Assembly (NCBI GenBank): GCA_949358305.1
Contig: OX442314.1
Span: 28,954,001 to 29,018,000 of the forward strand
DNA length: 64,000 bases
From: Strigamia acuminata
Taxonomy: Eukaryota
Direction: 5' to 3'
Positions 1,841 to 38,741 of this stretch are shown piece after piece (position 1 is the stretch's first letter; the number at the start of each line of letters is the position of its first letter). Below the pieces are notes generated by a model. That model was not told the origin of the DNA, searched no databases, and saw only the letters and a list, made by a program, of their open reading frames with translations. The position numbers and the translations under genes are program-made.

Positions 1841-2163
1841 CTGAATAATTTTAGATCACAAGATTAATATAATAAATCCCAGTTTAACGATGGGGATCAG
1901 AAATATGCTCAAGATCGACGGTGGCAGCAACTCCTTTCTTTTGTTGCGGCCGTCGGTCTTATTTTCTTGTTTCGCAGTTCTGCGATGATCTCCGCCGTCG
2001 TAGCGCTGATCCAACACTACCTTTGAACTCAGGTGATCCGCTTTTTAGGAAGGGGTCGCAGGCAAAACCGATCGTTAAATTCTTAATATTACGTTAAACT
2101 TTTTATTTTAACTCTAATCGTATTTTAATTTATTACGATGTTTAATTTTAAAAGAAAGAAAAC

Positions 2164-2518
2164 CTTTAGTTTTGGTTTTGGTTTGCCACGACGCCATTCC
2201 GCGAACACTTCCTTTGTTCTAGTTTTTTGGCGGCCTTGACTCCGAGGTGAATCTGGGTCCACTCTCGGGTTTTTAGCCAGCCTTAAATCAATAATAAAAC
2301 AGAAAGAAATATATCAGTCACAAGTCACGCTCCAATCTGGGTTGGATGCAACAGATTCAAAGAATTATGTGATTTCTCTGGGGAAATCACACTAATTTTA
2401 CCTGCAACGGCGGTTGTTCGTCCCAATTCTCATCGTCTTCTGCATTTACGATTAGGCCGTCGCTCTCGTCTCTCGACGATGCGCTCGGCTCTAATCGTGG
2501 GTTGCGTCGATCGGCCAT
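2164..2518 (-). CDS. Predicted upstream exons of element-1 ORF3 (2518-2402; possible 8-nt microexon 2336-2329; 2281-2164)
   Basis: ATG at 2518 gives MADRRNPRLEPS...EQPPLQ then CAG|GTAAAA (phase 0). Phases 0/2/0 join in frame to the 1840 acceptor only if the microexon is used; donors GTGACT and GTTTTC are weak. Confidence 0.5.
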
Positions 2519-5800: not shown

Positions 5801-7035
5801 TTTAGCTCCACTTGCCAATACCCCTTTGACAGATCCATCGTGGTTACCCACTTGAACGGGCTCAGTTCCCGGAGGATCGAGTCTATAGACGGCATCTGAA
5901 TCGGGTCTATAACTGTTATCGCATTCAGGGGGCGATAATCAATGCATAGTCGAGGCTCCGAGCCTGGACGCATTACCAGGACGATCCGCATCGCGTATTC
6001 GCCCAGCGCTTGAGTTACTATGCCCTTGTCGAGCATGTCTTGGCACATCTGCGTCACAATGTCTCTTTTCTGGGGGTTCATCCCCTTGTAAGGCACTCGA
6101 ATCGGCTTGTCTGTGGTTAAGACTATTTCGTGGGTTGCTTCCGTCGTTCGACCAGGTGTCTTGGTCAGAATTCTTTCATGTTTTCGAAGCACTCGCCTTA
6201 GTAGCGATGCCTCGTTAACACGCAGTGCTGCCTCCTCGACCAGTGTGTCCACGACGTTACTCCTCTGTAATTCCAGAGTGAAGGCTGCGAAATCGTAATC
6301 TTGGACGAATTTTCGCAATCCTCTTCCGTATTCCTCTTTGTCCTTGGCTTCGTCCAGTAATTTTTGGGGAACTACGGGGACTGGCCGTTCTCCCTCGGGA
6401 CTTATCCAGTTCCATGAACGGGTTATCGGGTTTGGCTGAATTTTCAGTTTTGCCATGATATCCATCCCTAAGAGGAATACTTTGTCGTGGGATGGCAAGA
6501 CTATGAAGGGGTGGGACAGGTTCCCCCCCTTCCAGTCGATCATGATGCGAACTACGCCCCTCGGCTTGACGTAGCCGTTGGCGGTGAGCAATTCTACGTT
6601 CGCGTTCACTTGTGCCACCTTTTTTTCAATATCCAAGTCCTTTACTATATCTTCGGATATGAATGAACGATCTGCTCCTGAATCCAGCAGACCGAACAAT
6701 TTTTGGTTTTCGATCTCCACTGGCAGCATACACAGAGTTTCGCAATGTGCTTTCGTGACATTGCAGTGAAATACGCGTAATGTCTGGGGCTCAACCTCCA
6801 GATTGAACGGAAGGTCCGTCCAATCCATGTCGACCTCCGGTTTCGTTCTCACTTGCATACTCGTTAACGTCACTTTTTCCTCCTTCTTCGGAACGATCTG
6901 TATGCGGTCTTTGATCTGTGCCTCTGCCAAGGCATGACCTGCGGGTCCAGTGTGATATTTCTTCTTTTTAATTTCCGCGGCTGGCGCAGACGAAGCTGAA
7001 TTTATTTCGGCGACGCCTGCGCTTGGAAGTTTTTT
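2899..7035 (-). CDS. pol: Pol of element 1 (protease, reverse transcriptase, RNase H, integrase with GPY/F motif), entered by -1 frameshift
   Basis: LLDSGA, AYLDD, HTDAS, HGHPLASH..CPRC, IDLMGP/SDNG/NPVER, RDGPY; the -1 frame is open back to the slippery site. Confidence 0.96.
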   Translation of the reverse strand, partial: KKLPSAGVAEINSASSAPAAEIKKKKYHTGPAGHALAEAQIKDRIQIVPKKEEKVTLTSMQVRTKPEVDMDWTDLPFNLEVEPQTLRVFHCNVTKAHCETLCMLPVEIENQKLFGLLDSGADRSFISEDIVKDLDIEKKVAQVNANVELLTANGYVKPRGVVRIMIDWKGGNLSHPFIVLPSHDKVFLLGMDIMAKLKIQPNPITRSWNWISPEGERPVPVVPQKLLDEAKDKEEYGRGLRKFVQDYDFAAFTLELQRSNVVDTLVEEAALRVNEASLLRRVLRKHERILTKTPGRTTEATHEIVLTTDKPIRVPYKGMNPQKRDIVTQMCQDMLDKGIVTQALGEYAMRIVLVMRPGSEPRLCIDYRPLNAITVIDPIQMPSIDSILRELSPFKWVTTMDLSKGYWQVELKPEDKLKTAFYSPIGRLMFNVMPFGLVNAPSTFQKLIESVLGDMLHDFVWAYLDDIIITSDTFEEHIDHIDRVVSRLAKAGLHIHPGKSKFCRKELAFLGYRIGVEGIAIDPEKVKAINGFPAPEDIKGVQRFMGMVNFFGRLLSGLAEVAAPITDLLRTDKEFEWTVQCEAAFSTIKQMLADVEKMPLPDLNRPFVLHTDASKIGLGAALLQTHVYNGISQEVPCMFISRKIQGAEKNYTATELECLAVIWAVRKFRDYLEYTNFEVQTDHQALSWLMKLKEPSGRLARWQLELMACDITITYRPGKYNHVADALSRAPASDPQGPDDDGEDDTHLLYCPTPRRIWRLRKANELPVMEPEDRTFCGFWTRTYQPAGTSDSTSAIQPPPPGETHKTLLRAFTAKIEEKTQYAPPTRREFVEHQAADTKCQIITQYLLNGEFPEGMTNPHRRKQFVKEATSYLIDDELLVKYHPTFQDDLSGAGNSVKVVVPASLHNRLLWLMHGHPLASHSGIARTLYRVKQLFFWPGARQKITKFIRHCPRCQACRPRDKVARNAMSLGPYAPFDCLSIDLMGPKPTTGNKNMYILVIMDVATRWPELYALAKPSAENIVECLYDVAMRFGFPRKLISDNGPQFRSRIYKDFCRKFKMDASNTSTYNPQTNPVERLNKDIKYALTVFTDIHNRWDEYLREIAFSIRSTVSRTREFSPAYLNFARELRMPWDPRVAEAVNVLDPSSPHEYVCRLEQTISDTYQHMMAHIFNMRERIADKEGDLAFANFKVNDLVWKEAHTLSNAARGIAAGLADKRDGPYVIVAEHGGNAYQLRRLEDNKNFQSIHGRDLRPYLPEFPQEIWLEGQTHSGQGGTVVDTFQKTNEAENIAEDEDEFFDAESPADEAPAQPEQAISEREEAEECTSEMENKKINNEKNANTSEMNEQVESRSTSTSKINLRPRRSNNPFIRDGKVVGKN
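6984..7035 (-). promoter_or_regulatory. -1 programmed ribosomal frameshift signal (element 1)
   Basis: A_AAA_AAC (7035-7029) in gag register, 6-nt spacer, stem GCGCAGGCG/CGUCUGCGC; pol is in the -1 frame. Confidence 0.85.
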
Positions 7036-10000
7036 GCCAGATCAGTTCTTAACTCCATCATCATTTTCATCATGGTTTGCATGATGTCCTTTTCTTTGAC
7101 GGTTTTCTCACATTTATCTGAGTAGTGGCCGTATTCTCCACAGCTGTAACATTTGATGTTACTTTTATCCCCTGTGGGAGTGAATCCCGGTTTTTTCGGG
7201 ACGAAGGGCGTCGGGAATCGTCTTTTTCCTCCCAATGCTCCTCTCGCTTTTGTTGCTTGCACGTGTGCTCTGAATTGTGTGATTGCCAAGGCCCGGTGTG
7301 CATGGTGCAAATAGGGACCTTGATCGTCGCATCCCGTCGATAAGTTTTCGAGGTGCTCATTTAGGGCTTCCTCGTCGCTCGATGCTGGCTCCTCTTCTTT
7401 AGCCGTGGCGAGAGGTGTTGTCTCTTCGACTTTCTCCATCTGGGTGGAGTCCGTCGAGGTCACCTGCATCGCCGTCGCTGCCGGTGCTTTCTTTGGGGCA
7501 GCTATCGGGTTGGCTGGAAGAATACTGCCTGCTTTAGGCGTCAGCATTCGTCCGAAGGATGCTTCGGTGAGACTCATTATGCCGCTCAAATATTCACTTG
7601 GCCTCATTAATTTTTCTGAGGTCTTGTGGCGTTCGGCGCTCGTCTGCAACCGCTTCTCGTGCGCGTCAGCTTCTTCCGGGGGCAGAGTGGCGTAATACCG
7701 CTGTTCTATTTCTAACGTGTTTGTTAGAAGATAGTTACTGACATCTTGGTAATCGCCAGTGCGGGGTGCACGCATGTCTAGCAGAATTCTTTGCGAGTGG
7801 GCCGATAATCCTCCGTAAAAGATCATCGTAAAACCAGCGGGGTTTATTTCGTACGGCGCTCTTGCAAACAGGAGTTTCGCTCGGGCGTCGTAGTCGGCTA
7901 ATGTTTCTCCTGGGGCTTGCCGTAGACCACGTAATTTGTTACTGATCTCGTCTGGAGTCTCGCCGTATCGGAGATCGAAACGGACGAGAAAATCGTCCCA
8001 GGTTGGGTTTTTCAGTCCCTGATACCATTCTCGAGCTGACCCCGTGGTTAGCTCCACTAGACCGTGGGTTAGCATGTCGGCGACGGTGGCTTTTGTCGCT
8101 TTCTTGATACGCATTACTTCGTCTAGGAAGCGGTCTCCGGCCTTCCACGAACCGTCGAATCGTGTTTGTATGTAGTGTTGCCAACGGATGTTACCCGTGG
8201 CTTCGCTGCTTGGTTCGTTTCGTACGCCATATTTGCGCTTAACCCTCTCTCCGGCGCGATTATGTTCGTCGCCTGGATGGCCTAGATCTATTCCTTCTCT
8301 TCTGAAAGAGTTCAGCAGGGCTCGGCCTAGCTCAGACATCGTGTAATGTCGGCCAGATGAGTCCTGAAAGTTCCCTTCCTCCGAACGAGGGTTGGAGCTC
8401 CGGGAGGAGCGGTCTGAAGCATTCGGCCGGTTCGACCGGTGCCCATCGCTGTCTTCTTGACTCCTCCCTGTAGACGGTCGACTCGGATGGTCGTCGTCCG
8501 ACGAATCGGAGGGCTCGGAGGGATCTCCTTGGGGGTGAAACCTCGGCCCTCTCGGTGGGGTCTCTCCGCCAGCCTTCTTCTGTTTCGAGCCTCCGGATGG
8601 CGGCGGCTCCCCTCCGTCGTTGTTCTCGTAAAAAGAATGCCATCTGTTTTCCTCGCTTTCGGGGCGTTCCCGATTTTTATTTGCGTTTTTCTTTTCGAGT
8701 AACGCGTCGATGGCTGCTCCCGTCTCGGATCTTTTTGAGGGGTGACGGTCCTTTGTTTTTGGGACCGACTCGTCTCTCTTTTGAGATTTCCCCCTTTTCG
8801 CCGTTTTTGCCGGCTTTGTTGCACCTTCTCCTGTGTCGGTATCAGAGCCGCTGGGGGGTTCTGGTTTCCGTTTCAGGTTTTCTTCATTTTTCTTCCTGTC
8901 CGAGACGTCTTGTGCGTACTCTTTCTGGAACTTTTCTGTCTCCTTCTCCCAGTTTTCGGCTTCCCATCTTTTTTGCTCATCTATTATAGCTTGTTTCTTC
9001 GCTTTGTACTCTTCGGTCCATCTGACTCGATCCCACTCTTCTTTCTCTTTCAGAAACTGTTCTTTTTCTTTTCTGGCTTCCTCTTCTCTCAACCTCTCGC
9101 GATGTTGTTCTTCCCATTTCTGATGTTGTAGAATGGCCTCTTTTCGCAACATTTGTAGTTTTTCTGTTTTTCTTTGAGCTATTAGCGCTTGAAATTGGTC
9201 CTCGTACTCTTGAGCTTCTCGATGTCGCCCTTCTACTGTTGCGTTCCATTCTTTTCGAATTTTAGCTTCTCGTTCTTCCCTCATTTTTTGGACCAGTTTC
9301 TCTGTTCTCTCGGTGGTTCTTCTCTCGCGTTGCTCCCTTTCTTCCTCTTCCTTCCAGAGTTCTCGCCGCTCTGCGCTCAGCCTTCGTTGGCGACTAGTCG
9401 CTTCTTGTCTGGCTTCCTCGCGGGCCTTCTCTCTGGATTCGTGAAGTGTTCGGTTGGGGTCTGGCGCGAAACCTCCGGTGTCACTGGGCGTTACCTGGGG
9501 CATGGGCGTCTCCGCTGCTGGTCTTGCGACCGGCGTCGGGGCTTGTGCCGCACAGATAGCGTCAGTGAGTAGGGTAATCGATTCCCAGACTGACGTTCCT
9601 ACTGGAATGTCTATCATCGCTTTTAGCTGGGCAGCTTGCTGCGTCAACCGAATTAGGTGAGATACTTCGAAGGAAACAACTGCAGGACTCGCCGTAACTC
9701 GGGGGGTTATCGGGGTCCCGCCGTCGTTTTTCCGTGGGGTTTGTTTTACGGACGTCTGAGCCGTTGGTGGCGATGGGTCTGTGCCGATCGTGACCGTTAT
9801 TTTCGGAGCTTCATTCGTCTCCTCGGTCATCAATATCGATACTCGTCCTGGCGATACGTCGCGAATTTCTTCTCGATTTTCTATGGCTTCCGGATCGGTA
9901 TCTTCGAAGGGTTGCATATTCAAGGGAACCCGCTCTCGCTCTGGCCCGTCTAGGGCCGCGAGCGATGCAGCTTGCTCCTCTTTCTGCGCCTTCGCTCTCC

Positions 10001-10142
10001 TTTTATTCGCTCGGGCTTTCGCCTTTGCGGACATTTCAGGGACGGGACCATCCGATCTCAGGTGGTAGTCGGAGGTCCTTTTTCCCTTCTCGGGCATTCT
10101 CTGCTCGGTTTCAGACGTGGATTGCTCGTCTTTGTCTGACAT
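7002..10142 (-). CDS. gag: Gag of element 1 (1046 aa; E/R/K coiled-coil, disordered region, capsid-like domain, CCHC knuckle)
   Basis: AREWY..WDDFLVRFDLRYG..LRQAPGETLADY retrotransposon-gag motif; CYSCGEYGHYSDKC. Confidence 0.93.
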   Translation of the reverse strand: MSDKDEQSTSETEQRMPEKGKRTSDYHLRSDGPVPEMSAKAKARANKRRAKAQKEEQAASLAALDGPERERVPLNMQPFEDTDPEAIENREEIRDVSPGRVSILMTEETNEAPKITVTIGTDPSPPTAQTSVKQTPRKNDGGTPITPRVTASPAVVSFEVSHLIRLTQQAAQLKAMIDIPVGTSVWESITLLTDAICAAQAPTPVARPAAETPMPQVTPSDTGGFAPDPNRTLHESREKAREEARQEATSRQRRLSAERRELWKEEEEREQRERRTTERTEKLVQKMREEREAKIRKEWNATVEGRHREAQEYEDQFQALIAQRKTEKLQMLRKEAILQHQKWEEQHRERLREEEARKEKEQFLKEKEEWDRVRWTEEYKAKKQAIIDEQKRWEAENWEKETEKFQKEYAQDVSDRKKNEENLKRKPEPPSGSDTDTGEGATKPAKTAKRGKSQKRDESVPKTKDRHPSKRSETGAAIDALLEKKNANKNRERPESEENRWHSFYENNDGGEPPPSGGSKQKKAGGETPPRGPRFHPQGDPSEPSDSSDDDHPSRPSTGRSQEDSDGHRSNRPNASDRSSRSSNPRSEEGNFQDSSGRHYTMSELGRALLNSFRREGIDLGHPGDEHNRAGERVKRKYGVRNEPSSEATGNIRWQHYIQTRFDGSWKAGDRFLDEVMRIKKATKATVADMLTHGLVELTTGSAREWYQGLKNPTWDDFLVRFDLRYGETPDEISNKLRGLRQAPGETLADYDARAKLLFARAPYEINPAGFTMIFYGGLSAHSQRILLDMRAPRTGDYQDVSNYLLTNTLEIEQRYYATLPPEEADAHEKRLQTSAERHKTSEKLMRPSEYLSGIMSLTEASFGRMLTPKAGSILPANPIAAPKKAPAATAMQVTSTDSTQMEKVEETTPLATAKEEEPASSDEEALNEHLENLSTGCDDQGPYLHHAHRALAITQFRAHVQATKARGALGGKRRFPTPFVPKKPGFTPTGDKSNIKCYSCGEYGHYSDKCEKTVKEKDIMQTMMKMMMELRTDLAKNFQAQASPK

Positions 10143-10216
10143 TTTCTTTCGGTAATTCTACGATTTGGGTTATCTTATTGAGAGATCACAAGTTCAGATT
10201 TGAGATTTATTTCTAA

Positions 10217-10234
10217 ATCCCGGCCAGGCCCCCA
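10217..10234 (-). promoter_or_regulatory. Primer-binding site, tRNA-Pro type (element 1)
   Basis: TGGGGGCCTGGCCGGGAT, 2 nt (CG) after the LTR; resembles canonical tRNA-Pro PBS TGGGGGCTCGTCCGGGAT. Confidence 0.85.
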
Positions 10235-10236
10235 CG

Positions 10237-11056
10237 TGTCGCGTCCTACTTGGTATAGGTTTAAATAGCGCTAACGTGTAATACTTTACCTGTGATCAAT
10301 TATGTAAATACCCAAATGAATACCAAATGTATGTAAATAAACAGGTAATTTATTCACCAGGCTTTATGCCTTTAAAATACACTCAGTAATAATTCTAGAG
10401 TCGACGTGGTCAGCGTCGAACAAAGGATTTCTCAAGATGGCGTCGTCGATTCCGCGTGGTCGGCGGAACAAAGGCGGCGTCTCGAGTTGTCGTTAATTCG
10501 TCACGGATTCGTCTTCACGGACGCGGTGGAATGCTCTTTCGAGTCTTCTATCCGTGCCTGTTGTCTAGGGTTTGTTTAGCGTCGCAGAGGCCTCGTCTAG
10601 GAACTTTGGGGTTCCCTACAAAGCACTCGGACACTTACTTCGGCGAATAATCGTCTGGGCGATTATTCTGGGTGATTTCACAAGGGCTATTCTCGTGCTT
10701 TCGCAGGAATAGCTCGCAAGTGACTTCGTGAGAGTTACAGTTTGCACTTTACTCAGCGATCCTCGATCAATCCTAACTTGTAGTTGAAGTTGGCCTGACG
10801 GTGAGGTAGTTGCTGTGTTCTTGGTGTCGTTTGTGTAAGTTCTGTCTTTAGGCGGGAAACACAGCCTTTTATGCAGTGGGGTGAAGGGCCGGCGATCAAC
10901 CAATGGGGGCTGACCACCAGCCGCTTCCTCCCCGTCGGGGCACACACCTGCCATGGGGAGGTGGAGCCAACTCGGGGGGGAACGACTCTTTAATCATAGT
11001 GACTCATAGGACAAGTATCCGCCCTGGGGGGACACTTATCCAACTGGGTCACCACA
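10237..11056 (-). repeat. 5' LTR of element 1 (820 bp)
   Basis: Minus strand starts TGTGGTGA (same as element-2 LTR) and ends ..CGACA next to the PBS; partner LTR not in window. Confidence 0.8.
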
Positions 11057-11083
11057 GATTGAATAGCAATTATACGATTGCAG

Positions 11084-11969: not shown

Positions 11970-12503
11970 AATGATTAATACCGCTTAGGTTAAGCTTTCA
12001 GTAAGCCACATGACATCTAGATCAATCTTAGCACTATCATTTAATATTCTCAAATTGTATCTCTTTGTCCGTATGTTTCTGCACAATACAATGTAGGAAA
12101 TAAAGTAAATGAAATAAATGAATTAACTGACTCATCATTGAATGCGCCTAACATAAATAAAATATTAATTTTTCTAACGCGCAGTTATGCGCCTGGTCCT
12201 GAGTATCCAGGTCCTGTTGATCAGGATTTTTATAATTCCTGTGTCCATGTCATCTCATTGGAGATGGACGACCATTCATGATTGTGATGTTTAAATCTGT
12301 GTCTTTTATTCAAGAGTTCACTAGATGGCACTGTCAATCAAATATCACAATACAGTCTGTCAAAATAATTACGTTTAGTTAATTAGGAGTGGTCTTGAGA
12401 AGTATAACAGTTTCTATCTAACTTTAATCAGGATCGATACCGAATCGACGTCGTCCGACTTATCTCGACTCACAATCATTTTTGCAAAGAAATGATTAAA
12501 TAT

Positions 12504-13462
12504 TGCTGCGATCCGGGTTTTTATCCACTTAATTTCTAATAAATTAAGCAGAAACCGCAGGTGAATGCTTTACAAGACTTATATCGCGGCCGAAACTTGT
12601 CTAGGGTTAAGTTTACGGAAATAGGAATAAAAAGACAGTTTATTATGGTAATAAAAATCACACAAATGTTTTATTCGATAAATTACAATATATACTAATT
12701 ATGATTGTGAATATCACAGAATAAAATGAGCGGGAAACAATGAAACAAAGGAAGGGCTTGCAACGACTGTTGCAAGCTACAAAGCGTCAGAAATGGCGCT
12801 TAAACAACTTGAAGTTGTTAGGCGAAGGCAAATTGTCTTCGTTCTACGAACTCACGAACGATGGTCGAAGACGATGGTTCTCGTGGGCTCCTTCTACGGC
12901 TCGTGCGACGGCTCGGCGGCGGTGGTTGACGGCTGTAGGCGTCCGGCTTTCGTACGATGGCGGTGGCTGTCGTTCGCGCAACAGCGACGGCGATGGTTCA
13001 CGATCGTCGGGAATCTTCTCTTCTCGATTGCTGGAATTAGCGACGGCTAATTCAAGCAGGATTGCTGGCTTTGTGCGTTTGATACACAAAGATAGCAGGT
13101 GAAACTGAGTTACAACGGTCCTCTATCAATACTTTTCTTTCAGGAGCAAAAGCAGTGATGTTGAGGTTGTTGTTGTATTTTTCAGAGTCTCGATTTGAGC
13201 CAAGACGCGAGCCCAGCACGCTTCAATATTGCGCAGAAAACCTGCGCACTTAGCTCAAATGGGTGCAACTAGTGGTTATTACACCATATTGCACCATAAC
13301 GGCTAATAACCGTTTTCACCCCGGACAACCTGGGGTGATATGTGCCTAGAGAGGATTTCTCCCCTCGGTCACATGATCTGACTTGGCGTGTGCCACAGTC
13401 AAATTAATTAGAAGATAATTAATTTAATCTTCTAAGTTGGTGAATATTTTGAGATCACCACA
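12504..13462 (-). repeat. 3' LTR of element 2
   Basis: Direct repeat of 23885-24843 (offset 11,381); preceded on - by the purine tract AAATGGGGGGATG (PPT, ~13463-13475). Confidence 0.97.
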
Positions 13463-13514
13463 CATCCCCCCATTTAAGACGAATCTTACATGGAGAGAAA
13501 ATGAACGAACCAAT

Positions 13515-16310
13515 TTATGATTCGTCCATGGTCTGAGTTCGCTCAGGCGTCAACGGGCGCATCATATCCGTGGTGTCGTCCCTCGGGTTGGACCGCTCGT
13601 TAACCGTACACAGGTCGCGACCTGCGTTTGGTCCGGAGACCATTCCAGGGTTGACATGAAGCCAAACCTGGATGATTCTTGCCGAGTTCGCTCGGTTGAA
13701 GAATCCTAGCGCCGCGAACTCGATTGGATCCTCTGGCGCTAATCGTGCTCTCAGGAGTCGATCATGGAGCACCGATGGTGGGCTTAACACCCGGATGTGG
13801 TCCTCGAGCCACATAAACACCTGCCTCGACAACTTGTGGTTGTTGCTAAGCAGTGTTCGCGTATCCGGCGTCAAATAGAAGTGCGGATACAGGCGCATTA
13901 GGGTCTTGAAAGCCGACTCTTTTTTCAGCGGCTTGACCTTCGTCTCCGGCTTGGCTGGCGGCGGCGGCGGCGGACGTGAGTCTTCCGTCGTGGCATCGTC
14001 AAACTGGCACTGCGGGCCCAAGAAAACCAACGCGGGTGCGGAGGTTGACGAGGGTGTGACGCCTCGTCCCGGTGCTCGACCCACACCGGGGAGCTGACGG
14101 GTTTCGACTACCCGTTGAACTCCGGCTGGAGTTTGAGAACTTCCGGCGTTCTCTGGCCAAAATGAACATCCAGCGCCCTCTTGGGCCGACTGGAAAACAG
14201 CCAGTGACGCAGCTGCTGTGGCGCTTGTAACTGGAAGCGGTGGTCTTCCGGTCATTCGCGCCGTGGCCTTCGCAAAGGACCACTCGGTTCGCAACCGAAC
14301 GGCGGCCTCTTCTTCGGTCTCACCGTTTGCTACGACTTGCTTTATTAGCTCGGCTAAGATCGTAGGCGGGTCGAGCCTGAGGTGGTACCACAGCTCGACT
14401 TTCTTCTCCGACAGGCCCATCGGCGCGGTCCAAAGGTACGTTATGGCCGCTAACGCCTGTCCTGGCGAAGGAAGAACACCAGGGTACAACACCCTAGTCA
14501 TCCCCGGAATTAGCTGACGCTGAAAATCCATCAGACGGGGATCATCAATGGTATTGATGTCGGAGACTTCTAGCCTTTCAGCTAGTCTCTGCCAGTCCTT
14601 CTGCGACTCGGCGATCTGGGCGCTTTGGTATGCGTCCAGCTTCTGGAGCACTTCCTGCTGTGCTCTAATGGGTTGCTGCTCGTAGCAGGTCCATTGTGGG
14701 CCGAATGACTCACTAAAAAATGGCCGGAGTTGCAGGTTGCTAACTCCAGCCGGCAAGCGGGAAACATATCCTTGTTCGGGCAAGCGGCTAGCATGTCCAG
14801 GTACTGGCACGCTACAGTCGGGAGAAATATCACCGACAACACGTCTCATGGCGTATGGAGTAGCCGAGTTGTCCACTTTGAACGTGGAGGCGGTTCGGCT
14901 ACTTCGGGCGGACTTAATTGTGGAGTCCGATTCAAAACTCAGCGAAGACGACGAGCCAAACGACTCTGGTGTCCGTCCTCGTCGCGACTGCGGGCGTGAT
15001 GGCTGCGCGTCAGTCGAATATGGGCGTGATCGCTTCTGACGTTCCTCTCGATCGCGGCTTGATTCGCGGAACATCGGTCGGACTGGAACCGGCGGAGGGA
15101 GTTGCCCCACCCTCAAATCCTCGTCTTGCGGCGGAGGATTGATGGCCGCTGGGGCCGGAATTTCATCTTCTTGATAAAAAGGGAGAGCGCAACGCGCTTG
15201 CTCCTCTGCCTCGTGTTCTCGAGCCAGTTGTCGATTTTCGTCGACGCGAAGCTGCACCGCGGCAGCTCGGAGTGCTTTGGACGGGAAAAATCCCGGAAAA
15301 TCGTTAAAACACCCGGCGAGCGCCAACTGGTGGAGCTCGGTTTGTGTGACGGGAAGTTGTGGGTTCCCGTCACGAACGGATTTGCGATACCGTTTAACGA
15401 CTTCGCGTTGTGTCGTCTTGAGGTTCTTCCTCAATTGGGTTAGAGCACCGTAATTAATTCCGGTACTCTTTAGCGCTCTTCTGCGCTCGTGACGCTCTCG
15501 TGGCGTCACTGGCCACTGGTTGTGCAGCAACTCTGCTGCAAGCGGTCCTGGGGGGCTCTCGTCGAGCGTCCACTCGATTTCGTCGACACCGTCCACGTGA
15601 AGGCGCTCGATGAATCTTCCTTTTGCACCAAATCCTTGCAGCGCTGATCTGCTGAAGTCGTGGCGCAACTTCCACCAGGTATTGTTTGCCGTCTTCAGTC
15701 TTCTGATTTTTTCGGGCAATGCCGCTCGAAAAATCAGCGGGTGCTGAGTCGGCACGTGATCGGGAAGCGCGAATGGCGTTTCTCGATCCCTCTCGATCTG
15801 TATTCGAAGAAAAATAAATAAATTAGTTTATTTAAAAATAAACAAATAATTTCTTATTTGAAATATTTTTTAAGCTTAGCGCTTGTGGCTGTGAGTCACT
15901 AAGGGATGTTGGTTGTCATGGCAACTCCCTTCGCACATGCTTGAAGCACGTGACTTTTATAGCCGCCATTTTTATTTTTTAGCGGCTTGTGTTTGAAGTC
16001 AGGAAAAGTGAAATTACTCAATTTTTCTGACTTAAACACTTGGTAAAAATTTATTCTAATAATTTACCCGTTGTTGAAGCGTCAATTGAACGTCTTCATT
16101 TGCCCCTTCCATGGGCATTTCTCCGTCCGCCTGGAGTTGGATCGCTTCCTCGTCCATTCTCTTTCGTTTTCCGGTAATTTCGGAAATTCTTTCGTCTTGA
16201 AAGAGAAATAATACATAAATCTTATGTTTTATCAAATTTTTCATACAGAAAAATTACTTACGATCAGGTTGTCGAACTATTCGGGTCGTAACGTAGGCGA
16301 TGCGATGCAT
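13515..16310 (-). CDS. Accessory ORF3 of element 2: predicted 3 exons (16310-16262, 16195-16068, 15797-13515), ~819 aa, unknown function, not Env-like
   Basis: ATG at 16310; GTAAGT donor (phase 1) matches tttcAAG acceptor (phase 1); GTAAAT donor (phase 0) matches taCAG acceptor (phase 0), giving MHRIAYVTTRIVRQPDHERISEITGKRKR..QQR-IERDRETPFALPDHVPTQHPLIFRAALP..; no signal peptide or TM helix evident. Confidence 0.82.
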
Positions 16311-16329
16311 ACACTCTCGAAACTTTTGA

Positions 16330-16450
16330 AAAAGTGACTAAGTTCGTTGATTGCAAACACGAACTTGGATTAGAGACGCTTTGTGACGTCACTAATTATA
16401 ACGTATGATTAACGTTGTCATTCGAGTGGGTACTACGAATGACGTCACGA
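16330..16450 (-). promoter_or_regulatory. Candidate internal promoter for ORF3
   Basis: Two TGACGTCA (CRE/ATF) palindromes at 16384 and 16440; TTAGTC initiator-like motif ~30 nt before the ATG. Confidence 0.35.
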
Positions 16451-16499
16451 GATTGCTTTCTCGGATCTTTTGGGTAAACCCAAAAGGTGAAAGACAACA

Positions 16500-19400
16500 C
16501 TATGTCTTGGCTCGCGGAACGCGAGATCTCAAGTTGTACTTTGACTTTCGCGAAGTACAATCCAACTTGTTTAGATTGTCATCAGCATCGTCTCCAATGT
16601 CAGATGAGTTATATACTTCATTGTTTGAAATTTTCTCTTTTTCTAAAAACATTTCCTTTTCTAGATTTTCATCAAGAGAAACATTTTCAAGTCGCTGGTT
16701 TATTTCATCGACTTCGTTATTTTTGAGTTTCGATTTTTTACTCGATTCCGTGTTTTCGACAGGAATTTTGGATAATTTAGCATCATCCAAGGTATTAACA
16801 ATATTTTTTGTTTTTTGACCCACTTCCTCCCCTTCCAGCCAAATTTCTTGGTTGAAAACGGGAAAGTACGGCATTAATTCAGTGCCGTGAACAGCTGGAT
16901 AAATTTTATTATCACTCAGCCGTCGAAGTTGAAAGGCGCCTCCTTGTAACCTTTTGATAATTACATAAGGCCCATTCCTTTTCGGTGAAATGCCTGCTGC
17001 TATTCCTTTAGCGGCATTTGAGAGAATATGAGACTCTCGCCAGACTAAATCATTTTGTCTGAAGTTGTCGAATTTCTTATCTGATTTTTCAGCTTCGACA
17101 CGGCGTCTCAAATCTAAGACGTGAGACATCATATGCTGATACGTCTCTGCAATTATTGTTTCTAATTTCTGAACATATAAATGCGGATTTTTTGGATCAA
17201 TGACTAAAATTCCTTCCGGAATTCTTGGATCCCAAGGAATTCTTAATTCTCGGAAAAAATTTAAGAAAGCAGGAGAATAATCTCTGCCTCTTGTTACAGT
17301 TGTTCTCAAACTGAATGCAAATTCGCGTAGATACTCATCCCATTGGTCATGAATATCTAAATAAATCGAAACTAAATATTTAATATCTCGATTGGTTCTC
17401 TCCACAGGATTGCTTTGTGGATGATAAATCGATGTCGGTGTTCGCGACATGTCGAATTTTTTGCAAAATTCTTTATAGACCTGTGATCGAAATTGTGGTC
17501 CATTATCACTTATGATTTGTCTCGGAAATCCGAAAGTCATTGATAAGTGATAAATTGTGTTGGCAACTTTTATTGCCGTTGGATTACACATTGGAAATAA
17601 TTCGGGCCAATGTGTAGCGACATCTACGATGACGCAAATGTGGGTATTGTTTTTTCTGGTTCTTGGTTTGGGACCAGACAAATCCACACTGAGGCAGTCA
17701 AATGGTCCAAATGGTCCAATTTGAGCGCCTTCAATTTCGGTCTTTGATCTCGGCTTACATGCCTGACATCCTTGACAATGTTGAATAAAACGTGTAATAT
17801 CACGTTTCATACCTTTCCAGGTATAAACTCTTCGAGTTCGGTACATTGTCCTCGCAATGCCTGGGTGGCCGGACAGTGGATGTCCGTGCATCAACCAAAT
17901 GATTTTATAAATCAATTTTCTTGGCACAACAACTTTAAGTGCCCTACCATCCTCTCCCAATTCATCGGTGGAGGTAGGATGATAATGGAGTAGCATATCT
18001 TCTTCAATGAGATAAGTACTCGCGTGTCTTTCAAAGTTTCTTCTTTGAAGACGAGTTACTATGTAACTTGGATATTGCTTGTTTAGCAAGTAATTGCGAA
18101 TATGTTGGCAAAATTCGTCTGCTTTTTGCGCTGCAATAATGTCATCTCTCGTTGGAGGATCACATTCTAATTGCTTCGCAATTTTAGCTGCAAATGCTTT
18201 AATTAAAACATTTGTTGTTGGCAGCTCGAATTTTTTAGCCATCATAGCTCTTAATTCGACGTCAGGGGTTCCTGACGGATCATGCATGTTAATACAAAAA
18301 TTAATTAATGCTTGATCGTCGTCATTAACTATTATTGACTTGGGTAATTCGTTCAATTTTCCCATTTGCCAACTTCGGCAAGGAGATGGACAATATGATA
18401 ATAAATCATCATTATCGCCATCGTCTTCTGGTTCGTCAGGTGCGCTGACAGGTGCACGTGACAATGCGTCTGCTATTACATTTAGCGGACCTTTGACGTA
18501 TTGTATTTCGAACGAATACGCCATCAGCTCCATTTGCCAACGAGCTAATCTGCCCGACGGGTCAGATAACGACATCAACCACCTAAGTGCTTGGTGATCC
18601 GTTTGTACAGTGAATGTAGTGTACTCTAAGTATGGGCGAAATTTGCGTAATCCCCATACTACTGCGAGACATTCTAATTCTGTCACAGTATAATTCTTTT
18701 CAGCGGGTTGCAAGCTTCTGCTTGCATACACGCATGGCATTTCGACTTCTTGGCCATCCACATTTTTCTTTTGTGTAAGGGCTGCACCCAACCCTTGTTT
18801 ACTGGCGTCAGTATGAACAATAAATGGCATGTACAAGTCAGGCATCTTCATTGTTTCAGCATTCGTAAGCAGGTCTTTTATTGCGTCGAATGCTGCTTGA
18901 TGATGCAGTTCCCAATCGAACTCCGCATCTTTCTTCAAGAGTGGCCTTAGTGGTTCTGCCACTGTGGCCAAATTCTTGATTAGGCGGTGAAAGAAATTCA
19001 CCATGCCTAGAAATCTTTGTAATTCCTTAAGATTGGTAGGAGCAGGAAATTGCGTAATTGCAGCGACTTTTTTAGGGTCTACTGCAAGTCCTTCTACTCC
19101 TACTTTGTAGCCTAGAAAAATTAATTCCTTTCTACAGAGATGCGTCTTGCCAGGGTGCGCATGTAAATTAGCTTCTGCCAATTTTTTAAACACTATATCT
19201 AAATGTTTAATGTGTTCTTCGAACGATTTGGATACAATAATTATGTCATCCAAATATGCCCATGCAAATTTTCTGTAAACGTCACCCAAAACTTTTTCCA
19301 TTAATTCTTGGAAGGTAGTTGGTGCGTTTACTAATCCGAAAGGCATGACTAAAAACATTAGTCTTCCCATTGGGCTCCAGAAGGCAGTTTTTTCTCTGTC

Positions 19401-20759
19401 TTCAGGTCGCAATTCTATCTGCCAATATCCCTTGGTCAGATCTATAGTACTGACCCATTCGAATTCTCCGATTTCTCGCAGAATTTCCTCAATTGTTGGC
19501 ATTTGAGGTGGGTTGTACTTAGTATGTGTATTGATGGGGCGAAAATCAATGCACAAGCGTGGGTCGTTTCCTGGTCGCATGACTAGGACTGGCCGCATTC
19601 CGTAATCGCCTTCAGCTTTGACGACTACGCCTTTGTCAATCATGTCTTGACAAAGTTGTCTGATTATTTCCCTTTTTTGAGGGTTTATGCTCTTAAAGGG
19701 GACACGGATGGGTTTCTCCGTGTCAAGCTCAATTTTGTGCTTAACCAGGTGTGTTTTACCTGGATCTTTAGAAATAATCCTTTTATGTTTGGATAACATC
19801 TTTTCTAATAATTTGGATTGCTCCAAATTTAAGTTAGCTTCTTCGACTAACTTTTGGATGAAATTCTCTTCATCAATTTTGCCTTGAGTTACACTTGCAG
19901 CGTAAGCTTTTGCAAAGGTCATAAATGAGGAATCGGGTTCCTCTATTTTCTCCAAATAACGATCCAGCAACGCTTGTGGAATGTAGGGTAAATCTGCATC
20001 CATAGGTTGCGTGAAATTCCAAGACATCGTCTGTGGATTAGGTTGGATTTTTAATTTATTCATAAAATCGCAACCCAATAGTACCATTGGATACTTATTT
20101 GGTATTACGATGAACGGATGACGTAACGTGCCATGTGTCCATCGAAATGAAAGATGGATGGTTCCATCTGGAGTGACTTCTTCACTTGCCGTCGTAACTC
20201 TGACACCAGGTCCGATAGGTCGTAGATATTTTTCTAGACCTAGTTGATTAATAACTGAAGTGGCTAGGAAGCTTTTATTTGCTCCTGAGTCCAACATTCC
20301 GGTTATTACACCTTTTAACGTTTCTAACTTTAACGTCGGAAGGTCTTGGCTGTTTGGTATTCCAGCCACTTTGCACTCAAACTTGCGCAATTTATGAGGA
20401 ATTGTAATTGGAGGCTCCAAAGGCAATTCATCTAATAACTCATTGGTATCAAGAGTTGTAGTTGCAAATAACTTAATGCATTCCTCAATTCCAGGTGTCT
20501 CTGGAACTGAGCTTGGTCTATCGTCTTTAACTTCGACTTTATCTTGAATATTGGAAGTGTCTTCTTCAGTCGGGGTTTCGCCGACAATCTCCTTTTTTAC
20601 ATCAAGAGATCCTTTTTCTTTTAGTTCTGTTTGACGAATTAATTCATCAATAACTTCTCCAACATCTTCCATTATCTTCAGATTTTCATTCTCTGATTCC
20701 GATTTCGGAGGTGACGCAGCGTCCACTAGACCTGATGGATCTGCGTCTACAAGTTTTTT
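16500..20759 (-). CDS. pol: Pol of element 2 (PR-RT-RH-IN), entered by -1 frameshift
   Basis: MLDSGA, AYLDD, HTDAS, HGHPLSGH..CQGC, VDLSGP/SDNG/NPVER, RNGPY. Confidence 0.96.
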   Translation of the reverse strand, partial: KKLVDADPSGLVDAASPPKSESENENLKIMEDVGEVIDELIRQTELKEKGSLDVKKEIVGETPTEEDTSNIQDKVEVKDDRPSSVPETPGIEECIKLFATTTLDTNELLDELPLEPPITIPHKLRKFECKVAGIPNSQDLPTLKLETLKGVITGMLDSGANKSFLATSVINQLGLEKYLRPIGPGVRVTTASEEVTPDGTIHLSFRWTHGTLRHPFIVIPNKYPMVLLGCDFMNKLKIQPNPQTMSWNFTQPMDADLPYIPQALLDRYLEKIEEPDSSFMTFAKAYAASVTQGKIDEENFIQKLVEEANLNLEQSKLLEKMLSKHKRIISKDPGKTHLVKHKIELDTEKPIRVPFKSINPQKREIIRQLCQDMIDKGVVVKAEGDYGMRPVLVMRPGNDPRLCIDFRPINTHTKYNPPQMPTIEEILREIGEFEWVSTIDLTKGYWQIELRPEDREKTAFWSPMGRLMFLVMPFGLVNAPTTFQELMEKVLGDVYRKFAWAYLDDIIIVSKSFEEHIKHLDIVFKKLAEANLHAHPGKTHLCRKELIFLGYKVGVEGLAVDPKKVAAITQFPAPTNLKELQRFLGMVNFFHRLIKNLATVAEPLRPLLKKDAEFDWELHHQAAFDAIKDLLTNAETMKMPDLYMPFIVHTDASKQGLGAALTQKKNVDGQEVEMPCVYASRSLQPAEKNYTVTELECLAVVWGLRKFRPYLEYTTFTVQTDHQALRWLMSLSDPSGRLARWQMELMAYSFEIQYVKGPLNVIADALSRAPVSAPDEPEDDGDNDDLLSYCPSPCRSWQMGKLNELPKSIIVNDDDQALINFCINMHDPSGTPDVELRAMMAKKFELPTTNVLIKAFAAKIAKQLECDPPTRDDIIAAQKADEFCQHIRNYLLNKQYPSYIVTRLQRRNFERHASTYLIEEDMLLHYHPTSTDELGEDGRALKVVVPRKLIYKIIWLMHGHPLSGHPGIARTMYRTRRVYTWKGMKRDITRFIQHCQGCQACKPRSKTEIEGAQIGPFGPFDCLSVDLSGPKPRTRKNNTHICVIVDVATHWPELFPMCNPTAIKVANTIYHLSMTFGFPRQIISDNGPQFRSQVYKEFCKKFDMSRTPTSIYHPQSNPVERTNRDIKYLVSIYLDIHDQWDEYLREFAFSLRTTVTRGRDYSPAFLNFFRELRIPWDPRIPEGILVIDPKNPHLYVQKLETIIAETYQHMMSHVLDLRRRVEAEKSDKKFDNFRQNDLVWRESHILSNAAKGIAAGISPKRNGPYVIIKRLQGGAFQLRRLSDNKIYPAVHGTELMPYFPVFNQEIWLEGEEVGQKTKNIVNTLDDAKLSKIPVENTESSKKSKLKNNEVDEINQRLENVSLDENLEKEMFLEKEKISNNEVYNSSDIGDDADDNLNKLDCTSRKSKYNLRSRVPRAKT
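20713..20759 (-). promoter_or_regulatory. -1 programmed ribosomal frameshift signal (element 2)
   Basis: A_AAA_AAC (20759-20753), 5-nt spacer, stem GACGCAG/CUGCGUC plus UCCA/UGGA; the -1 frame is open into pol. Confidence 0.85.
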
Positions 20760-23700
20760 CGAAACATGTCAGTTATGATCTTGACTGCTTTTTCAAACTC
20801 AGCTGTTGACACTGGTTTGTCCTTTTTAGAGGAAGGGCAGTCTTTTTGCCAATGCCCTAATTTTTTGCATAAATTGCATGGATCAGTGGCAGGCGATTTC
20901 TTTTTCGTTGCTGCTGGCGAGGCAGAACGAGAACGAGCGTCAGACCGGCGCTCTGGCGACACCGCAGGTGACTTTGAATTCCTTTCGGTATTCACCTTTG
21001 ATGCGTCAAATGAAACATTTTTTGGTTTCATCCTTGGCTTCCATTTGCCCGCAACGGGGTTATTTTTTGCTAACAACGCCGCTGCTTTGGCCAATAAAGC
21101 CATCGTCTCGTCTCCTGTTTCCTCCTCCTCTTCAGCTTCTTCAGCTTCAGACGACGGAGTTTCAGCTCCAGTTATATTTGCGTGTAACTTAGGGACTGAA
21201 TGAGGATTTTTGACGTCCTTTTTGGAAGATTCTTTTTTCGAACTCTTCTCATCCACTTCGTCTAGAAAGTCTTCGTAACTAGGTGGCTGCAACAATTTCA
21301 AACCATTAAAGGTTTCATTGTTTTGCTCAGCGAGTCTTTTCTCTCGCTTTAAGTACGCTGACCTTTCGGCTTCTGTAAGATAAGCTTTGTACTTTTCGTC
21401 AATGCGCAATTGATTGACTTCCATGAATTCGTTTAACTCGGAGAATTTCCCCGGGTCGGGAGCGTCCGACATCATCAGAATATTTTTACTATATTCTGTG
21501 AGGCCAGCTCTAAACTGATCATCTGCTGTTGCATCAGTAACAGCATGTGGCATTCTGCCAAGCAGATTCTCTGCTCTTAGCATGTACGAATGTAAGCTTT
21601 CGCCTTTTCGTTGCTTAAGACATCTCCAGAGCGTTTTGATGTCTTCGCTCGATTCACCAAATTTAAACATAAATTGTTTAACGAAGTCATCCCACTTCGT
21701 GAAGTCTTTCCTGCGAAACCACTCCTTGACACCGCCAACTAGTATTCTTGGTACTAGATGGGCCAATGCACCTTCACAGCTAAAACTGTGAACTTTGCCT
21801 AGTTCGAATATTTCCAGCAAGAGGTTTGACCCTGCTTGCCAATTTCCATTATAGGCATGTGGGATAACTCGATCCCATCTAATGAACTTTTCATCTGTTG
21901 TTTGATGAGTCCATTTATCAGAAGTAAATTCACTTATTTTTTGCAAAATAATTTTATCCCTTCTGCTTTTTCGCTGTTGTTGAGCATTTTGCCTCAACAA
22001 CTGGTCAATCTCATCTTTCGTGTAGAAATCGGGTCTTTGAGTTCTACTACGTGTTCTGTGACGAGATCGCCCTCTCACACTGGGACGTGAGGAATCTGTA
22101 TCTGACGCAGATTCATGATTCGGATTTGGCGGCGGATCAGGGTCCGGAGGATCGTCGCCATCTGGCGGACGACGGTCTCCATTTGGTGGTCCCCTTCCAT
22201 TTCGATTGCCATTCGAATTGTGGTCACGTGAGTGGCCACCTCCATGTCCATCTGAACTATCTCCACCTGGTGGGTCACCACCTGGCGGATTTCCACGGTA
22301 TCTCGGCCCATCACGGATGTCGTTATGACAATCTCGTTTTGGTGAGCCTTCTCGCGGATTATCGTGTGACCGTCCACGATCGTGTGGTTTCTCACGTTCT
22401 TTATTCTTTTTCTCTAGCATTCCGATTAATCGGTCGCTATTGCTAAAGAATCGATCCGAATCTTGCGTAACTTTTGGGGAATGATATTCGGTCGGGTCTG
22501 GTTGTCGCTTTCGCTTTTTGCGACTGTGATGACTGTTACGGCTTCCACGACTACTGCGTGAGTCATCACTGTCAGTCCAACTTGATTGTCGACTGACTTT
22601 TGGTTTAGCTGATGTTAAATCAATCAACTCAGGTGATTTGGAAGCACCTTTTTGCAAAACTGGGGCTGGCTTTGCAAAATTATCTTCGCCACAAACGTCT
22701 TGTACTTTTTGTACTACTACTGCAAAGTTCTCTTGTACCGTCAATAGATCTGCGCGAAGAATTTCGTTTTCACGAGCTTGCGCAGCTAAGTCGGCACGTA
22801 ATAACTGCTCTGCAGTACTTTGACTTTTGGCGGCTAGACCAGCATCAATTACGGACTGCTGTCGAGCGAGAAATACTTCGTTTTCTCGTTGTGCTAATCT
22901 CTTAGCTCTTGCTGCTTGCTCTGCAGCATGATTCTCGTAATTTCGAGAAGTGGAGGGAATTACTTCCCTCGCTCGAACTGGGGCGGTTAGTTCGGCAGTC
23001 ATTAAATTTGTGTTGGCTTCTCGCAAATTTGCGTTGGCCAATCTCAAATTTTCATTAGCAATTTCTAAATCTTTTTGGGCTTGATTTAGTTGCTCGAGCC
23101 TTTGTTGTTGCTCTTCGTCAGTAATTAGCCAGGAAGCTTTTTCCTGTTCTAATTGTAACAACTTAACATGGTCATTCGCACGTTGTTGTTTTAGTTCGGC
23201 ATTTTGCTGATGCATTTCTGCATGCATTCGCTCGAACTCTGCTTGCAAGCTTGTTCTGACGATTTCAACGTCCTTTTGGCTTTGTTTGCGAACCATAGCT
23301 TTGTGGATTTGTTCCACAGTCATTTCGCTAGTGACTTTTACTCCCTCGAGCCTAGCTTGCTCACGGAGTGCGTCCATCATGGTAACACGCACGGGAGAAT
23401 GAGAAACTTCCATATTGGAGTTCTCAGAATCTTGCTGTGCTGCACCTTGAACCGGTGATGAATTCAGCGAGTGCTCTGCACTTGATGATTGAATTCGTAA
23501 ATTCAAATCATCGTTTTGCGACTTGGAACGGCCACTTCCAGTTGGATTGTTTAAGTCCAACTGGCCGCTTGGCGGGGATGGCTTTTGTCGCTCCAACGCT
23601 TGCGTGAATTCATTCACGATTAACTGTGCCGAGTTACAGTTAGCTGTTTGATCCATAGTTTCAAACAGTTCTTGTGACTCAGTCACTTCTTGATCCACGG

Positions 23701-23770
23701 CTGGTAGATCGATCGCCACTCGTCTCTTCGCTGGTCTGCCTCTCGGTCTCTTTTCGCCTGGAGTCGCCAT
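20747..23770 (-). CDS. gag: Gag of element 2 (1007 aa)
   Basis: Coiled-coil N-terminal half; VKEWF..WDDFVKQFMFKFG..LKQRKGESLHSY; CNLCKKLGHWQKDC. Confidence 0.93.
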   Translation of the reverse strand: MATPGEKRPRGRPAKRRVAIDLPAVDQEVTESQELFETMDQTANCNSAQLIVNEFTQALERQKPSPPSGQLDLNNPTGSGRSKSQNDDLNLRIQSSSAEHSLNSSPVQGAAQQDSENSNMEVSHSPVRVTMMDALREQARLEGVKVTSEMTVEQIHKAMVRKQSQKDVEIVRTSLQAEFERMHAEMHQQNAELKQQRANDHVKLLQLEQEKASWLITDEEQQQRLEQLNQAQKDLEIANENLRLANANLREANTNLMTAELTAPVRAREVIPSTSRNYENHAAEQAARAKRLAQRENEVFLARQQSVIDAGLAAKSQSTAEQLLRADLAAQARENEILRADLLTVQENFAVVVQKVQDVCGEDNFAKPAPVLQKGASKSPELIDLTSAKPKVSRQSSWTDSDDSRSSRGSRNSHHSRKKRKRQPDPTEYHSPKVTQDSDRFFSNSDRLIGMLEKKNKEREKPHDRGRSHDNPREGSPKRDCHNDIRDGPRYRGNPPGGDPPGGDSSDGHGGGHSRDHNSNGNRNGRGPPNGDRRPPDGDDPPDPDPPPNPNHESASDTDSSRPSVRGRSRHRTRSRTQRPDFYTKDEIDQLLRQNAQQQRKSRRDKIILQKISEFTSDKWTHQTTDEKFIRWDRVIPHAYNGNWQAGSNLLLEIFELGKVHSFSCEGALAHLVPRILVGGVKEWFRRKDFTKWDDFVKQFMFKFGESSEDIKTLWRCLKQRKGESLHSYMLRAENLLGRMPHAVTDATADDQFRAGLTEYSKNILMMSDAPDPGKFSELNEFMEVNQLRIDEKYKAYLTEAERSAYLKREKRLAEQNNETFNGLKLLQPPSYEDFLDEVDEKSSKKESSKKDVKNPHSVPKLHANITGAETPSSEAEEAEEEEETGDETMALLAKAAALLAKNNPVAGKWKPRMKPKNVSFDASKVNTERNSKSPAVSPERRSDARSRSASPAATKKKSPATDPCNLCKKLGHWQKDCPSSKKDKPVSTAEFEKAVKIITDMFRKNL

Positions 23771-23864: not shown

Positions 23865-23882
23865 ATCCCGGACGGGCCCCCA
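23865..23882 (-). promoter_or_regulatory. Primer-binding site, tRNA-Pro type (element 2)
   Basis: TGGGGGCCCGTCCGGGAT, 2 nt (CG) after the 5' LTR. Confidence 0.9.
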
Positions 23883-23884
23883 CG

Positions 23885-24843
23885 TGCTGCGATCCGGGTT
23901 TTTATCCACTTAATTTCTAATAAATTAAGCAGAAACCGCAGGTGAATGCTTTACAAGACTTATATCGCGGCCGAAACTTGTCTAGGGTTAAGTTTACGGA
24001 AATAGGAATAAAAAGACAGTTTATTATGGTAATAAAAATCACACAAATGTTTTATTCGATAAATTACAATATATACTAATTATGATTGTGAATATCACAG
24101 AATAAAATGAGCGGGAAACAATGAAACAAAGGAAGGGCTTGCAACGACTGTTGCAAGCTACAAAGCGTCAGAAATGGCGCTTAAACAACTTGAAGTTGTT
24201 AGGCGAAGGCAAATTGTCTTCGTTCTACGAACTCACGAACGATGGTCGAAGACGATGGTTCTCGTGGGCTCCTTCTACGGCTCGTGCGACGGCTCGGCGG
24301 CGGTGGTTGACGGCTGTAGGCGTCCGGCTTTCGTACGATGGCGGTGGCTGTCGTTCGCGCAACAGCGACGGCGATGGTTCACGATCGTCGGGAATCTTCT
24401 CTTCTCGATTGCTGGAATTAGCGACGGCTAATTCAAGCAGGATTGCTGGCTTTGTGCGTTTGATACACAAAGATAGCAGGTGAAACTGAGTTACAACGGT
24501 CCTCTATCAATACTTTTCTTTCAGGAGCAAAAGCAGTGATGTTGAGGTTGTTGTTGTATTTTTCAGAGTCTCGATTTGAGCCAAGACGCGAGCCCAGCAC
24601 GCTTCAATATTGCGCAGAAAACCTGCGCACTTAGCTCAAATGGGTGCAACTAGTGGTTATTACACCATATTGCACCATAACGGCTAATAACCGTTTTCAC
24701 CCCGGACAACCTGGGGTGATATGTGCCTAGAGAGGATTTCTCCCCTCGGTCACATGATCTGACTTGGCGTGTGCCACAGTCAAATTAATTAGAAGATAAT
24801 TAATTTAATCTTCTAAGTTGGTGAATATTTTGAGATCACCACA
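23885..24843 (-). repeat. 5' LTR of element 2
   Basis: Copy of 12504-13462; adjacent to the PBS. Confidence 0.97.
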
Positions 24844-38725: not shown

Positions 38726-38741
38726 TGAGATACAGATACGC

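Follow-up and report, generated by a model that had tools for sequence, protein, structure and literature searches.

A selected, probably intron-split non-Env gene after pol in two divergent families of one Gypsy lineage

The window analysed here, a 64-kb stretch of Strigamia acuminata DNA, contains a recently inserted, intact Gypsy retrotransposon on its minus strand (12504-24843, hereafter element 2), flanked by a 4-bp target duplication, ATAT. Its LTRs are identical, gag and pol are open, and a third gene lies between pol and the polypurine tract (PPT), as an earlier note on this DNA had claimed; the interval 13515-16310 given there spans the third gene only. In the order of transcription the element comprises the following features.

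23885..24843, minus strand: 5' LTR, 959 bp, TG...CA, 100% identical to 12504-13462
23865..23882, minus strand: primer binding site, 2 nt past the LTR; a similar site follows the LTR of the neighbouring element 1
20747..23770, minus strand: gag with a C-terminal CCHC knuckle (PF00098, E 9e-4, slightly under the curated cut-off)
16500..20768, minus strand: pol (PR-RT-RH-IN), intact, overlapping gag
16311..16499, minus strand: spacer, candidate internal promoter or structured RNA
16262..16310, minus strand: predicted exon 1 of the third gene, 49 nt, with ATG 16310 in weak context; may be largely 5' UTR
16196..16261, minus strand: predicted intron 1, 66 nt, phase 1, GC 0.20, GT..AG; donor rank 3/598, acceptor rank 1/851
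16068..16195, minus strand: predicted exon 2, 128 nt; encodes an acidic peptide; GKRKR precedes ATG 16157, whose context is good
15798..16067, minus strand: predicted intron 2, 270 nt, phase 0, GC 0.31, GT..AG; predicted stem at the donor, with two hairpins after it
13515..15797, minus strand: exon 3, 2283 nt, 760 codons; helical N-terminal region common with element 1, R/S/P-rich linker, two more predicted helical regions
13463..13475, minus strand: PPT (motif)
12504..13462, minus strand: 3' LTR, AATAAA at 12675 and 12644

The LTRs, primer binding site, PPT, gag and the pol order PR-RT-RH-IN place element 2 in Ty3/Gypsy (Metaviridae), with a primer binding site that we take to be of the tRNA-Pro type. 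Among 4729 scored candidates the closest matches to its Pol reached no more than 26-35% identity over RH-IN, and those with a named source belonged to ticks, rotifers and a springtail. In a quick RT-RH tree, elements 1 and 2 paired (SH-aLRT 100) within a group of tick and springtail elements (95); its 39 rows, from 120 listed matches, were the 30 with the best scores and named ones spanning 330 columns or more. Relatives with flanking sequence numbered 0/2 and 2/68 among viral contigs (30-31% identity) and 4/63 among metagenomes (33-39%), none of them close; a tblastn comparison of the third proteins with these viral and metagenome relatives gave no match, and a search of Rfam returned none. 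The Osvaldo clade was weighed for element 2; the Culex members of that clade are all tRNA-Lys, and the clade name is withheld. By the features examined, element 2 is not an errantivirus.

The window holds several other repeats. A third, unrelated Gypsy element (28850-33511), with a single 1373-aa gag-pol frame and 181-bp LTRs that are 99.4% identical, sits in a repeat resembling 11077-12037, and a further Gypsy element has left remnants of its gag and protease frames on the plus strand at 38637-40402. A satellite of 1676/1686 bp with 31-nt subunits occupies 41747-44581 and 47993-64000 in at least nine copies that are 99-100% identical. It is broken by a foldback/MITE-like block (44568-47837) with inverted ends of 23-nt units, in which inverted tandem arrays of a 56-nt unit, 11.6 copies per array, enclose repeats of an 11-nt unit.

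The three-exon model of the third gene was recomputed, and its exon and intron coordinates, GT-AG sites, phases of 1 and 0 and 819-aa product held exactly. The 760-codon open frame has a chance probability of about 8e-13 at the local base composition. On a splice-site ranking from a rough weight matrix of typical base frequencies, the acceptors of introns 1 and 2 were ranks 1 and 2 among the 851 AG dinucleotides on the sense strand of element 2, and the donors were ranks 3 and 7 among the 598 GT. Seven stop-free chains lead from an ATG to exon 3, and the one proposed in the earlier note comes out on top (score 19.2 vs 8.8). The first methionine of exon 3 is residue 242 and an in-frame stop (15830-15828) stands 30 nt above the acceptor, so the N-terminal part of this exon is translatable only through a splice or an unusual start.

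The beginning of the protein is less sure. ATG 16310 does open the 819-aa frame as claimed, but its context is poor, while ATG 16157, in frame within exon 2, is flanked by a purine at -3 and G at +4 and would give a product of 790 aa. Similarly, the GKRKR motif that had been likened to a nuclear localisation signal (NLS) is present in exon 2, yet it is absent there in the neighbouring element and lies upstream of the better ATG, so that the 790-aa protein lacks it. Intron 1 and the 819-aa start are therefore less certain than the rest of the model, the 790-aa start fitting the neighbour better; intron 1 may lie in the 5' UTR, or may serve a longer leaky-scanning isoform.

That neighbour, element 1, is a divergent relative truncated by the window edge, with the following features.

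2899..11056, minus strand: element 1, with 5' LTR at about 11056-10237 (bounds from motifs), gag 7002-10157 and pol 2899-7041
2402..2518, minus strand: predicted 39-codon exon opening the coding part of its third gene; acidic, with a stop in frame 3 codons ahead of the ATG
1841..2401, minus strand: predicted intron, 561 nt, phase 0, in a place matching intron 2 of element 2; donor rank 6/444, acceptor rank 6/833
2..1840, minus strand: long exon of its third gene, 613 codons, continuing past the window edge

The two elements are 50% identical in Pol and 24% in Gag over 394 aa. Their third proteins are 30% identical over 100 aa (E 3e-7; 0/1000 shuffles reach the score), and this likeness begins at the first residues of the two long exons, directly after the AG and in the same register. 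Past residue ~110 the similarity is not significant (244/2000 shuffles reach it for residues 111-200, and 333/500 beyond 200). The long exon of element 1 also has an in-frame stop just above it, and the 39-codon acidic exon corresponds to the stretch of 30 codons that starts at ATG 16157 in element 2. As a stop stands 3 codons before ATG 2518, any earlier exon in element 1 would be non-coding. The matching acidic exon and phase-0 intron indicate that intron 2 is conserved. Aligning the two post-pol regions globally at the DNA level gave no usable information.

Further cassette exons were sought in the element 1 intron, where the best acceptor, at 2282, gave no stop-free ATG chain. In the region 1841-2898, two GC-richer islands within the 561-nt intron likewise fit no such chain; together with acceptor 2282 they could possibly represent structured RNA (z -4.0 at 1881-2000) or exons, whether alternative or non-productive. 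The element 1 LTR has strong donors at 10947 and 10638. Both Gag frames (20747-23770 and 7002-10157) are unusually long at ~1000 aa, with ~600 residues before the alignable capsid-like part and no Pfam annotation there.

Two public runs from one study contain the stretch and are possibly the window's own source; their even cover over LTR, introns and genes led us to read both as DNA. Variants were taken as two sets, the best-supported 40 of 384 places and all 21 rows within 15600-16500. Of the exon 3 variants listed, 20/25 were synonymous against an expected fraction of 0.25-0.29 (p 2e-7 against 0.29). The best 40 of 384 included 13 in exon 3, nine of them synonymous, and within the same 40 the synonymous share was 8/13 in pol and 7/12 in gag. 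At the 5' end of exon 3, 11 of the 12 variants in 15600-15797 were synonymous (p 1e-5 vs the 0.29 expectation). This pattern stops at the intron 2 acceptor and the next variants upstream are all intronic: a C/T change at acceptor position -3 (CAG/TAG kept) and another C/T in the pyrimidine tract, with a 2-nt indel 10 nt into intron 2 among copies.

In the contigs of both DNA-like runs there was no intron-less joint across intron 1 or 2. The contigs over 15600-16500 held one joint in all, which came from a divergent relative and was not at the introns, and of the 35 joints in a wider listing the 15 displayed were also elsewhere. Contigs drop rare variants, so this retention applies to common copies, and rare intron-less ones are possible. 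As judged from these contigs, common copies keep both introns and the third gene is under selection. Two checks set out in the earlier note came out in its favour: the common genomic copies in these contigs show no precise intron loss, and the splice sites of intron 2 are conserved among relatives, its acceptor varying between CAG and TAG only and the neighbour having a matching phase-0 site.

Three further observations concern the copies. In run X1 a single 486-nt contig (16003-16488), covering the spacer, exons 1-2 and intron 1, had a depth of ~5960 with zero differences, and divergent contigs over that region had depths of about 105-110; although depth is not a copy number, this suggests tens of near-identical copies and an unusual uniformity of this part. 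A divergent relative of low depth, present in both runs, can be matched to the spacer and to exon 3 but not in between (15641-16328). Other contigs part from intron 2 ~50 nt above the acceptor and continue in AT-rich sequence of a different kind, as sister families with their own intron sequence.

The protein is, provisionally, an orphan without known relative. Exon 3 matched none of 7996 candidates from 5.8 billion proteins at E 0.01, and the two-sequence N-terminal alignment matched none of 7995 longer proteins at E 1, both searches being word-based and weak for distant relatives. Pfam gave no family at E 0.1 and only sub-threshold rows at E 10, NCBIfam gave none at E 1, and no captured-enzyme domain (DEDDy, GDSL, GIY-YIG, Rep) was found with either. 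AlphaFold predicted three helical regions linked by coil (pLDDT 41 and 46). With models of such low confidence, Foldseek found nothing at E 0.001 in PDB and viral structures, a result that weighs neither for nor against any particular fold, those of baculovirus F and herpes gB included. Guanine deaminase, the best PDB sequence match to the alignment (E 0.021), was dismissed as chance, and the best VIA match (Z 6.2, rmsd 12.9) as generic helices.

The composition of the protein agrees with the earlier description of a non-Env gene. No membrane segment was detected in exon 3 on the Kyte-Doolittle scale (best 19-residue hydropathy 1.01) and exons 1-2 are hydrophilic, which on that scale bears out the claim that signal peptide and transmembrane helix are missing. 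The further claim that furin and fusion-peptide patterns are absent stands for the fusion peptide; there is one furin-type R-x-K-R match, at residue 253, followed by hydrophilic sequence. Exon 3 is rich in P, R and S, with 7 Cys in 760 residues and a single N-glycosylation motif. Both third proteins have basic and RS/SR-rich stretches. The basic cluster of element 1 is significant (10 R/K in 15; 0/500 shuffles) and that of element 2 is not above chance (139/500 shuffles), while an export-signal pattern occurs twice, overlapping, in element 1 and not in exon 3 of element 2, where shuffling predicts 2.2.

The third-gene mRNA probably ends in the 3' LTR, which carries two AATAAA signals, and may start in the ~190-nt spacer or in an LTR leader spliced to a weak acceptor at 16323. 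An initiator-like TTAGTC lies in the spacer at 16341-16336, 30 nt before ATG 16310. Post-pol RNA is predicted to be structured in both elements (z -6.1, -6.0, -6.1 and -5.5 vs shuffles), in the spacer and around donor 2, which is itself predicted to be base-paired. Compared with the remaining sequence, the post-pol region stands out clearly in element 1 (mean z -2.6 vs -1.0 to -1.3 elsewhere) and modestly in element 2 (-3.4 vs -1.6 to -2.8). The pol of element 2 is also predicted to be structured (mean z -2.7; 15/35 windows at or below -3), and since its RNA appears structured throughout, the local hairpins are only modestly special.

Taken together, we consider it highly probable that the gene is real, is spliced at intron 2 and does not encode Env. 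On the sequence evidence it likely contains one ordinary intron or two, which DNA copies keep. Reverse transcription copies packaged RNA, and new insertions that keep the introns imply that the packaged RNA was unspliced. We tentatively favour, at somewhat less than even chance, a role for the product in RNA export like that of CERV or Rev: strong splice sites lie in an RNA that has to be exported unspliced, and the nearest precedent is CERV (PMC10309623), a nuclear orphan protein that comes from a spliced mRNA and is needed for export of Cer1 RNA. The third gene would be a selected accessory gene of its Gypsy lineage, expressed from a separately spliced mRNA. Its soluble, largely low-complexity product would act in the nucleus and let intron-holding full-length RNA be exported and packaged, and the predicted hairpins near the spacer and the intron-2 donor could be its cis target or a splicing brake. 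Against such a role, element 2 lacks an export-signal pattern and a significant basic cluster, and CERV-like features do not appear in the (poor) models, which have no Cys loop and no G-protein-like match. To our knowledge, Env-bearing elements export unspliced RNA without a Rev-like protein. Export by cis signals only also exists, in Mason-Pfizer monkey virus.

Nearly as likely, though still doubtful in itself, is that the same spliced gene encodes a transactivator or silencing antagonist of the foamy Tas/Bet or plant VANC type, made early from an internal promoter, with the introns kept by cis signals alone; donor 2, in keeping with this, is predicted to be base-paired. The 64-kb window has just two TGACGTCA sites, both within the spacer at a distance of 56 bp (16440-16447 and 16384-16391) and near the initiator-like motif, and the spacer is alignable in divergent relatives while exons 1-2 are not. 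The protein diverges fast relative to Pol, which fits host conflict, and post-pol internal promoters are known from the Oikopleura Tor4b env (PMC4402516) and foamy tas/bet (PMC13220597). However, two TGACGTCA sites per window are not above chance (29/100 shuffles), their clustering was spotted post hoc, the two can also form a stem in RNA, and in element 1 only half sites occur; nor did Pfam and fold searches find a DNA-binding or chromatin domain.

It is unlikely that the product instead works in the cytoplasm or in association with particles, perhaps with a Gag-fused form as well, spliced from donor 20995 to the intron-2 acceptor. Among the donors this one, in late gag, ranks first and shares phase 0 with exon 3, and some insect elements do splice env from within gag (PMC12992720). 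Nevertheless, a donor of such score is expected somewhere in 12 kb and one in three would be in phase; both elements have their own ATG exon just above the intron, and the protein has no similarity to Gag (best E 0.33). More improbable still is a coding but unspliced frame, translated from an internal methionine, a non-AUG codon or by internal ribosome entry, with the GT-AG sites due to chance in AT-rich spacers. Phase agreement at intron 1 has a one-in-three chance, AT-rich DNA scores well as acceptor, the spacer is predicted to be structured and the two DNA-like runs showed no spliced read. Against this, synonymous-only constraint begins at the acceptor, 241 codons before the first methionine, the acceptor varies between CAG and TAG alone, and the relative carries a donor and acceptor at the corresponding position, again in the same phase. 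A strongly diverged Env, or some other membrane fusion protein, to which the env-slot position, the R-x-K-R match and, in the element 1 product, whose end is outside the window, a stretch of moderate hydrophobicity (1.75) close to the window edge might point, is very improbable given the low hydropathy, few Cys and lone glycosylation motif of exon 3, its hydrophilic upstream exons, the lack of a Pfam match and a predicted all-helical/coil fold.

Export of unspliced LTR-retrotransposon RNA is understood for few elements, and CERV is the sole trans-acting example in the papers searched. That strong host-type introns survived repeated reverse transcription in two divergent families implies some mechanism favouring unspliced RNA for packaging, for which the short introns offer a simple read-out. 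Because it has no relative in the searches made, the third protein is a candidate new regulator or silencing antagonist. Annotation based on ORFs alone misses such genes. It is conceivable, if rather doubtful, that this undescribed, arthropod-associated lineage is independently 'complex', with a multi-exon regulatory gene under its own promoter in the env slot, introns kept at 50% Pol identity, and a new protein family that switches from spliced to packageable RNA through structured RNA at its own donor.

The ingredients of this arrangement, namely non-Env ORF3s, post-pol internal promoters and a spliced export factor, are each known separately (PMC10309623, PMC13524379, PMC6431247, PMC5408684, PMC13547354, PMC7264820, PMC4402516, PMC3286476, PMC12992720, PMC5718144, PMC13220597, 10.1101/2025.03.14.642691). 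Outside subscription papers and Repbase entries, the literature search turned up no arthropod Gypsy element whose pol is followed by a free-standing non-Env gene in sense orientation and split by introns. Errantivirus env-F resembles the third gene in following pol and gaining its start codon by splicing. It differs in its signal peptide, furin site, fusion peptide, conserved Cys and membrane anchor and in being spliced from the leader or gag (PMC12992720), whereas we found just a lone furin-type motif. In insects, Gypsy elements of the MDG1 group also carry accessory ORFs on which purifying selection acts, sORF1 (nuclear) and sORF2, but these are about 110 and 70 aa long, unspliced and upstream of gag (10.1101/2025.03.14.642691).

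Foamy virus tas/bet and the Oikopleura Tor3b/4b env are likewise 3' genes expressed from an internal promoter, and tas/bet is further spliced; unlike them, the third gene has a candidate internal promoter, suggested by motifs only, there is no sequence relation, and the Tor product is a membrane Env (PMC13220597, PMC4402516). The extra ORFs of bdelloid rotifer and plant elements are non-Env and lie between pol and the 3' LTR, as here, and gene23 of maize Grande encodes a nuclear protein from its own promoter in antisense; the rotifer ORF3s, in contrast, are recognisable captured enzymes (PMC5408684, PMC5718144, PMC7264820, PMC6431247). Introns inside these ORFs find no mention in the passages searched, and the word 'intron' has no matches in PMC5408684 and PMC7264820.

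The closest counterpart is CERV of Cer1, a Ty3/Gypsy element of C. elegans. Both are Gypsy-encoded orphan proteins. CERV comes from a spliced mRNA of five exons whose splice sites stay in the genomic RNA, as DNA variation and conservation suggest for the third gene, and both proteins combine fast divergence, structured domains on flexible linkers and a basic NLS-like motif (PMC10309623). CERV differs in sharing gag exons and in having a Cys loop and a G-protein-like domain (PMC10309623); the protein searches gave no homologue of the third protein, which has no Cys cluster, and its models (pLDDT 41 and 46) are too poor to speak against such folds. The third gene is instead free-standing in the env slot, 790-819 aa long, with small introns of its own and, in both elements, its own ATG exon after pol. 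Such a gene is not unprecedented, with CERV as a product of splicing and with the non-Env ORF3s of rotifers and plants; what stands of the earlier proposal is a real, selected, non-Env and probably intron-split gene, with the place of intron 2 common to two divergent families of one Gypsy lineage.
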